From Escherichia coli (GTDB lineage Bacteria > Pseudomonadota > Gammaproteobacteria > Enterobacterales > Enterobacteriaceae): 352 nucleotides of DNA. Where the stretch lies: assembly GCF_003334255.1 (NCBI RefSeq), contig NZ_QOWU01000256.1; one strand, written 5' to 3'. Positions 1 through 352 of the stretch are shown here, in pieces. The number at the start of each line of letters is the position of its first letter. Position 1 is the stretch's first letter. A program made the position numbers and the translations under genes. The notes beneath the pieces are model-generated. The model was not told where the DNA came from and made no database searches. It was given only the letters and a program-made list of their open reading frames with translations.

Positions 1-12
1 GTCGCGGTTTTC

Positions 13-153
13 CTACTGCTTACACTGTAAGAACGCCGCAAACTCCGCTCCCCACAAATTCAGCCGGAACTCACACAACGAGCCGTGTAACATCCAGATG
101 GTGAAGATTACCGTCATACAAATTGTGACGGTGATGAGCGATTTTTGCGACAT
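13..153 (-). CDS. hok: Hok/Gef-family type I toxin, small inner-membrane protein, 46 aa (HokA-like)
   Basis: Minus-strand ATG at 153..151 and TAG stop at 15..13. An in-frame TAG lies 10 codons upstream (183..181) with no other start between, so the start is unambiguous. AGGAG Shine-Dalgarno (plus 163..167) sits 9 nt upstream of the ATG. Translation: MSQKSLITVTICMTVIFTIWMLHGSLCEFRLNLWGAEFAAFLQCKQ. Short polar N-terminus (MSQK), an ~18-residue hydrophobic segment, then a tail with the SLCE and AAFL.CK motifs characteristic of Hok/Gef proteins. Family assignment is from recalled HokA/HokE sequences, not a database search. Symbol is family-level only; the paralog is not assigned. Confidence 0.85.
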   Translation of the reverse strand: MSQKSLITVTICMTVIFTIWMLHGSLCEFRLNLWGAEFAAFLQCKQ

Positions 154-256
154 AACGCTTGTCTCCTGAGTGGAGAGGCGCTAACCTACTACTTGTGAAG
201 GTTGTACGGTCAGGGCCTCGGGTTAACATTAAAGTTGACTCGGGGCCTTTCCACAT
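71..256 (-). CDS. mok: mok-like overlapping reading frame (61 aa), probable translational-coupling ORF, not an independent protein
   Basis: The ORF from the supplied track (MWKGPESTLMLTRGPDRTTFTSSRLAPLHSGDKRYVAKIAHHRHNL...). It starts 103 nt upstream of the hok ATG, runs across the hok Shine-Dalgarno and start, and ends at TGA 73..71 inside hok in a different frame. This is the arrangement known for mok in plasmid R1 hok/sok. Its His/Arg/Thr-rich sequence has no recognisable fold. Start is uncertain: a GAAGG lies only 4 nt before the ATG at 256, and an alternative in-frame ATG exists at 229..227. Confidence 0.45.
   Translation of the reverse strand: MWKGPESTLMLTRGPDRTTFTSSRLAPLHSGDKRYVAKIAHHRHNLYDGNLHHLDVTRLVV
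159..187 (+). promoter_or_regulatory. Candidate sigma70 promoter for a Sok-like antisense RNA
   Basis: Plus strand: -35-like TTGTCT (159..164), 17-nt spacer (165..181), -10-like TAACCT (182..187) with T at position 1, A at 2 and T at 6. Predicted start around 191..195. The -35 overlaps the hok Shine-Dalgarno region on the opposite strand, as I recall for the Sok promoter in R1. Hexamers are moderate matches only. Confidence 0.4.
163..167 (-). promoter_or_regulatory. Shine-Dalgarno (ribosome-binding site) of hok
   Basis: Minus-strand AGGAG (plus-strand ctcct at 163..167) with a 9-nt spacer to the hok ATG at 153. Confidence 0.6.
194..252 (+). ncRNA. sok: Candidate Sok-like cis-encoded antisense RNA (type I antitoxin), about 57-60 nt
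   Basis: Lies between the candidate promoter (159..187) and a stem-loop plus TTT (214..250). Predicted architecture is a roughly 20-nt unstructured 5' tail (194..213) followed by a single 3' hairpin. It is fully complementary to the mok/hok mRNA from 4 nt downstream of the mok ATG to about 60 nt further on. Size and layout resemble Sok of plasmid R1 (about 64 nt). Ends are approximate. Confidence 0.4.
214..252 (+). terminator. Stem-loop with short U-run; putative intrinsic terminator and structural domain of the antisense RNA
   Basis: Plus-strand 214..227 (GGCCTCGGGTTAAC) pairs with 234..247 (GTTGACTCGGGGCC): 14 bp, 11 Watson-Crick plus 3 G-U wobbles (218/243, 221/240, 224/237), 6-nt loop ATTAAA (228..233), followed by TTTCC (248..252). 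On the minus-strand transcript the three wobbles become A-C mismatches. The U-run is only 3 nt, so termination efficiency is uncertain. Confidence 0.35.
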
Positions 257-306
257 CAGGCCTTCAGGTTCTCCCTCCAGCCATCAGCCGAAAGGCACCC
301 GCGCAT

Positions 307-335
307 AATCTACGATTTTTGCCCTGCACGGGCAA
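307..335 (-). promoter_or_regulatory. Candidate promoter for the mok/hok mRNA
   Basis: Minus strand: -35-like TTGCCC (revcomp of plus 330..335), 17-nt spacer, -10-like TAGATT (revcomp of plus 307..312). Predicted start near plus 300, giving an mRNA beginning GGGUGCCUUUCGGC... about 44 nt upstream of the mok ATG. Weak hexamers; the true promoter could lie beyond the right edge. Confidence 0.3.
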
Positions 336-336
336 C

Positions 337-352
337 AAAAAACCCGCCATCA
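337..352 (-). terminator. Possible 3' arm and T-tract of an intrinsic terminator for an upstream minus-strand gene, truncated by the window edge
   Basis: Minus strand reads ...TGATGGCGGG TTTTTTGTT: a GC-rich segment (plus 343..348) followed by a T6 tract (plus 337..342). The matching 5' arm would lie beyond position 352 and is not visible. Confidence 0.2.

Follow-up and report, generated by a model that had tools for sequence, protein, structure and literature searches.

A stretch of Escherichia coli DNA of 352 nt, the whole of which is referred to here as the window, carries a hok-like toxin gene at one of its edges. [quoted passage not shown] The open reading frame (ORF) of 46 amino acids is of the Hok/Gef type and runs on the minus strand from window position 153 to 13, with a TAG stop at 15..13, as read from both the ORF list and the sequence. 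The first-pass annotation had placed the edge of the window 12 nt past this stop, with the 3' UTR cut off, and direct reading agrees: exactly 12 nt follow the TAG (GAAAACCGCGAC, window 12..1). This truncation is a property of the window boundary and no statistical feature; a chance test is inapplicable to it. Of these 12 nt, nine form a linker and the last three, GAC, open the 5' arm of a conserved stem-loop that extends beyond the window edge. The features at this end of the window are:

13..153, minus strand: hok-like toxin ORF, 46 aa, MSQKSLITVTICMTVIFTIWMLHGSLCEFRLNLWGAEFAAFLQCKQ (profile matches and RefSeq)
13..15, minus strand: TAG stop codon of the toxin ORF (direct reading and ORF list)
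4..12, minus strand: 9-nt linker that separates the stop codon from the 3' stem-loop, GAAAACCGC (read from the sequence; nearly invariant in 23 homologues)
1..3, minus strand: GAC, start of the 5' arm of the stem-loop (the rest lies outside the window, at L014 3678-3696)

That the fold-back element, the terminator and the context cannot be judged from the window, as had also been claimed, holds true, and the flank was taken from a viral contig, L014. An exact-pattern scan of viral contigs located the whole window in this one contig without mismatch (L014 3326-3677, hok on the + strand). Window positions 1-15 are very likely the start of the 3' UTR of a hok-family type I toxin mRNA from a 933W-type Stx prophage, with an R1-like 3' architecture and switch.

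Genomic setting and toxin family

L014 is collinear with the 42.1-56.5 kb segment of the Shiga-toxin phage 933W, without any inserted element, and no IS element was found within about 3 kb of the hok locus. The hok locus belongs to the phage late region, where it is flanked by lom and L0129, and the surrounding genes are all co-directional. Near-identical DNA is present in 1551 of 5426 complete E. coli genomes, where it is almost always chromosomal, and in 198 phage records, mostly of Stx-converting phages. The context is that of a 933W-type Stx prophage and not of a plasmid. In the reference 933W record (AF125520, about 45,455-45,860; L035 about 5456-5860), the locus between lom and L0129 is unannotated.

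The toxin is assigned by its sequence to the Hok/Gef family. It matches Pfam HOK_GEF (PF01848, E = 4.7e-8, residues 8-44) and phrog_251 (E = 2.8e-24), and the identical protein of near-identical loci is annotated in RefSeq as 'Hok/Gef family protein' (WP_000078907.1). The NCBIfam Hok and HokA models match only below their cut-offs. The best of them is NF007290 (HokA), with E = 9e-10 and 38 bits, far under the curated cut-off of 89 bits, and the toxin was not retained as a HokA equivalog. The likeness to the chromosomal hokA of E. coli K-12, compared by protein model only, is thus limited to a best NCBIfam match with a below-cut-off score. The R1 system likewise has a Hok/Gef toxin; in comparison, the present toxin, of 46 aa, is more HokA-like, and it is encoded by a prophage and not by a plasmid.

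Phage 933W carries a further hok-family locus, hokW-sokW, which was characterised experimentally (Stx2 phage 933W/Sakai prophage 5; Takada et al. 2021, PMC8621323). The two loci share the phage type, the toxin family and the order of a hairpin followed by a fold-back element (fbi), the hokW fbi GCACCCGC being complementary to its own 5' GCGGGUGC. There is no obvious terminator before the next gene in hokW-sokW either. On the other hand, hokW-sokW lies at 58.46-58.79 kb of 933W, in contrast to about 45.46-45.86 kb for the present locus, and encodes a 51-aa Gef/RelF-like toxin together with an annotated mokW. Some phage records label the present locus 'MokW-like', but its identity with the published hokW-sokW was rejected, as the position in 933W, the toxin sequence and the 5' end all differ; the published HokW has 51 aa, starts with MKQQKAM and has the 5' end GCGGGUGCUUGAGGC, none of which is matched here. 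933W-type Stx phages hence possess a second hok cassette.

A literature search found no paper on the present hok locus. It is an undescribed but ordinary member of the well-known hok system, with two modest peculiarities, the absence of a terminator after the fbi and the absence of a conserved mok. Beyond annotation, its importance is small.

The 3' UTR and its pairing with the mRNA 5' end

In the L014 flank, the stop codon is followed, after the linker, by a stem-loop of 9 bp (GACGGGGAC-GAAA-GUCCCCGUC). Conservation was assessed by counting the pairs in an alignment of 23 distinct homologues, which were drawn from Stx phages, P2-like prophages and plasmids. The stem is 100% paired across this set, and two-sided changes occur at four of its nine pairs (A-U to G-C; C-G to A-U or G-C; G-C to A-U). 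In R1, mutations breaking the equivalent terminal stem abolish the truncated mRNA and toxicity (PMC9841398). By analogy, the stem-loop would shield the 3'-trimmed hok mRNA as its terminal stem and would mark the point at which processing stops. When read on the opposite strand (window 1-14, plus; L014 3697-3664, minus), the hairpin followed by CGGTTTTCCT is terminator-like in every homologue; no transcription is known toward the hairpin.

The R1-type 3' fold-back element that was to be sought in the flank is present. The fbi is an 18-nt sequence, UCAGCCGAUAUGGCACCC, located at L014 3713-3730, i.e., 48-65 nt past the stop codon and 17 nt past the stem-loop, and it is complementary to the predicted 5' end of the mRNA, GGGUGCCUUUCGGCUGA (window 300..284). 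The first-pass annotation had proposed looking in about 150 bp of flank for a complementary region followed by a terminator; the complementary element was found, while the terminator was not found in L014. Nor does an unrelated gene abut the stop codon in place of a complementary element, since the fbi is present and lies upstream of the probable start of L0129. The order of a G+C-rich stem-loop and a 5'-complementary fbi is that of R1, where the element likewise ends about 64-65 nt past the stop. In the R1-like hok (L034) and in hokW (L033), this distance is about 62-65 nt, compared to about 65 nt here.

Both MFE and ensemble folds of transcripts of 358 nt and 479 nt pair nucleotides 1-7 and 10-17 with L014 3713-3730, with a probability of 0.76-1.0 per tac-fbi pair and fold z-scores of -6.3 (358 nt) and -6.0 (479 nt). 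The complementarity is significant: the duplex between the 5' 20 nt and a 3' UTR of 130 nt has an energy of -30.9 kcal/mol, and none of 1000 dinucleotide shuffles of the 3' UTR performed as well (mean -18.5, sd 2.6). This test is conservative: even the short fbi of the R1-like locus fails to reach significance (205/1000). The tac-fbi pairing of 7 + 8 bp that yields this energy is much longer than the 7 bp of R1. Moreover, in a cross-matrix of three distinct hok 5' ends, each prefers its own 3' UTR.

Among the 23 homologues, pairing reaches 98.8% and 92.3% in the two tac-fbi helices, compared to 32-52% when the partners are slid by 1-3 columns. Changes within the clade are one-sided only, for the most part C to U with a resulting G-U pair, and the set contains no compensatory tac-fbi change; covariation proper is seen only between hok subfamilies. 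Because the 5' partner is invariant within the clade (23/23), the support for this pairing comes from the cross-family comparison and from the boundary of the cassette.

This boundary is the strongest independent evidence for the fbi. In records from three contexts, BLAST homology to the P2-like prophage and plasmid copies ends at query position 391, corresponding to L014 3730, the last base of the fbi. The conserved mobile unit delimited by these alignments therefore extends from the promoter or tac to this element. Over that span, the P2-like cassettes (at the ogr/attR end; they follow ogr, next to the attachment site) and those of IncI, IncC and IncF plasmids share 78-83% nucleotide identity with the present locus, from the promoter or +1 onward. 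Their 5' end is identical, and they have the same stem-loop with the compensatory changes. Many of the P2-like and plasmid matches begin at the proposed +1 or 2 nt before it.

Promoter, leader and predicted switch

The window contains the complete 5' half of a hok-type regulatory region, with the 3' partner just outside. The features upstream of the toxin ORF are the following:

331..352, minus strand: 3' half and T-run of the upstream lom terminator (terminator-like site L014 3317-3337, then TTTTGTTGCC)
307..335, minus strand: probable hok promoter, -35 TTGCCC (335..330), 17-nt spacer, -10 TAGATT (312..307) (from reading of the sequence)
284..300, minus strand: tac-like 5' end of the hok mRNA, mRNA nt 1-17, the partner of the fbi (with the probable +1 at 300)
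242..252, minus strand: ucb-like box, GGAAAGGCCCC (partner in the folds: the GAGG region for the long form, tac for the trimmed form)
216..219, minus strand: GAGG, placed like the mok Shine-Dalgarno (SD) of R1 (predicted partner: the ucb-like box for the long form, the dcb-like CCUC for the trimmed form)
175..178, minus strand: dcb-like CCUC (predicted to pair with GAGG in the trimmed form)
159..253, plus strand: probable Sok-like antisense gene, -35 TTGTCT (159..164), -10 TAACCT (182..187) (by analogy with the R1-like locus L034)

The mRNA 5' end is placed at window position 300, where three indications converge: position 1 of the Rfam model RF01794 aligns there; it lies 7 nt past the TAGATT -10 box, in a promoter whose hexamers, but not whose spacer, are kept in the P2-type homologues; and the plasmid homologues start 2 nt upstream. 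A consensus promoter scan did not report the hok promoter, whose score is under the threshold of the scan. The intrinsic terminator of lom (L014 3317-3347) is cut by this other edge of the window, with loss of its 5' arm, and its T-run overlaps the probable hok -35 box (335..330).

A putative antisense gene opposite the leader would be a further likeness to R1. By analogy, the Sok-like RNA would be about 60 nt long and would end in a hairpin near 213..250; its promoter hexamers and the terminal hairpin were picked by eye. The consensus scan reported no promoter at this gene, and the Rfam sok model (RF01794, sok/hok-leader) scores 35.8 bits on the region, against a gathering score of 59. For the 3' region Rfam offers no model, and its remaining weak hits are noise.

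A difference from R1 is the absence of a conserved mok frame. No ATG, GTG or TTG is present between GAGG and the hok AUG. A 61-aa ORF starting at AUG45 (window 256..71, minus strand) overlaps the hok start, but it was rejected as mok, as it is not conserved: it is open across the start in only 4 of the 23 homologues. Judging from these alignments, the hok clade of the present locus seems to lack an R1-type mok; therefore, translational unlocking may differ from that of R1.

The RNA is predicted to adopt a two-state fold. With the fbi included, the ucb-like box (252..242), which is invariant in the 23 homologues, pairs with the GAGG region (219..216). In the RNA trimmed as far as the stem-loop, nt 49-59 become the partner of the 5' end, and the partner of GAGG moves from nt 54-59 to nt 123-126 (CCUC). 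The other boxes that take part in these alternative pairings are likewise invariant in the homologues. This corresponds to the rearrangement described for R1, from tac/fbi and ucb/SD to tac/ucb and SD/dcb (PMC9841398), and the predicted pairings of both the long and the trimmed forms are thus shared with that system.

In the switch proposed on this basis, the fbi would close the transcript into a ring by pairing with tac, the 17 nt at the 5' end of the mRNA. As in R1, the ucb-like box would hold the GAGG region in this closed form, so that the mRNA would be neither translated nor accessible to the antisense RNA. Slow 3'-to-5' exonucleolytic trimming would then remove the fbi and stop at the stem-loop. 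The 5' end would refold onto the ucb-like box, forming the tac stem, and the leader would open. The opened mRNA would either be destroyed after pairing with Sok or be translated into the membrane toxin, whose toxicity is likewise assumed by analogy.

The junction with L0129 and alternative readings

The start of the neighboring gene L0129 is annotated within the fold-back element, probably wrongly. In RefSeq and in the 933W record, its ATG is L014 3722, 56 nt past the toxin stop, at the head of a 133-aa ORF (L014 3722-4123). The phrog_610 profile (124 positions) aligns from residue 9, which is the second methionine (L014 3746), a start that has a ribosome-binding site and that other annotators have chosen. 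Because of the profile alignment and this supported start, the real start is most probably the second methionine, 80 nt past the stop and 15 nt past the fbi, and the annotated one is probably 8 codons too long.

Between the fbi and this next gene, the terminator scan found no intrinsic terminator in L014. The P2-type and plasmid homologues, on the contrary, have kept a canonical hairpin and T-run terminator 22-27 nt past the fbi, and R1 differs from the present locus in the same respect. In the Stx-phage copy, the start of L0129 stands where that terminator would be. On the hok strand, the closest terminator-like hairpin lies inside L0129, about 100 nt past the fbi (L014 3826-3856, GCCUGC...GCAGGC then UUUUGCUUU). 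It is kept in most 933W-type copies, with one variant breaking a pair, and the hok transcript may in reality end there.

An unlikely reading, albeit one with several points in its favor, is that the hok of the Stx phages is a terminator-less variant in which the lock has ceased to operate in the R1 manner. The toxin would be made from the 5' part of a polycistronic mRNA with L0129 or by read-through of the late operon, and its expression would depend on prophage induction and not on the slow 3' trimming of a discrete mRNA. The 15 nt from the fbi to L0129 do hold no terminator, unlike the P2-type and plasmid copies with their site at 22-27 nt; lom, hok, L0129 and all the flanking genes lie on one strand; and hokW-sokW of the same phage type makes its toxin when the prophage is induced (PMC8621323). 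Furthermore, the open tac-ucb form is predicted for transcripts of 700 nt or more, a result that is soft evidence only, as fold predictions for long RNAs are unreliable and the length series is inconsistent at 420 nt, where MFE and ensemble disagree. However, the fbi, the stem-loop and tac are equally conserved in the 933W-type copies, which argues that the lock is still under selection, and transcripts ending at the hairpin and U-run 100 nt past the fbi are predicted to be closed.

It is conceivable, though improbable, that the cassette was joined to L0129 exactly at the 3' edge of the fbi, without a terminator, with the hok RNA as the leading portion of a longer transcript. The lock, or its loss in long RNAs from read-through or from the late operon, would then couple Hok, and possibly L0129, to prophage induction, so that the phage would carry beside hokW-sokW a second, differently wired hok locus assisting lysis. 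If the terminator-less fusion changes toxin switching, it could, speculatively, bear on the timing of lysis and on the release of phage and Shiga toxin in EHEC.

Compared to the R1-like switch, it is very unlikely that the stem-loop at window position 1 is a plain terminator, whether it serves hok or a transcript of the other strand, with the complementary element outside the hok mRNA. The scan does call the hairpin terminator-like on the + strand of the window, with the tail CGGTTTTCCT at window 5..14. On the hok strand, however, the hairpin is followed by AACTGGTTGC, without a T-run, and no converging gene is present on the other strand in the Stx-phage context. Moreover, the element 17 nt past the hairpin is kept in every context, the cassette homology runs exactly to its end, and the R1-like locus has the same order of hairpin and fbi.

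That the fbi is simply the start of L0129 and its complementarity to the hok 5' end incidental is hardly credible: RefSeq and the 933W record do place the ATG of the 133-aa ORF within the element (L014 3722), but the PHROG profile aligns from residue 9 and other annotators start there, the element is also kept where L0129 is missing altogether, in P2-like prophages and plasmids, and none of the 1000 shuffles matches the duplex.

Other arrangements are found at the edge of the cassette. In L009 and L011/L016 (e.g., L011 6940-8416), the sequences diverge right past the fbi (GGCACCCGTTTGT...), and an AT-rich stretch followed by a 398-aa ORF takes the place of L0129, which makes a third junction at this edge of the cassette. 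L030, a 1-Mb record labelled as a plasmid, contains two tandem hok cassettes of the clade (498-872 and 1220-1594) at a distance of 720 bp; they follow ogr in a P2-like element, and each has its own fbi and terminator. An E. albertii plasmid carries a decayed relative (L031 1201-1500), with a stop at the second hok codon and deletions in the ORF, and without the stem-loop or the fbi. Finally, the 25 nt past the fbi in the P2-type copies (..ACAGACATGAACAACAAAC..) resemble the region of the ribosome-binding site and start of L0129 (..GAGAGAATGGACGACAAAA..; L014 3731-3760). This likeness may be residual homology, the L0129 start having been built from the spacer upstream of the cassette terminator, or it may be due to chance.
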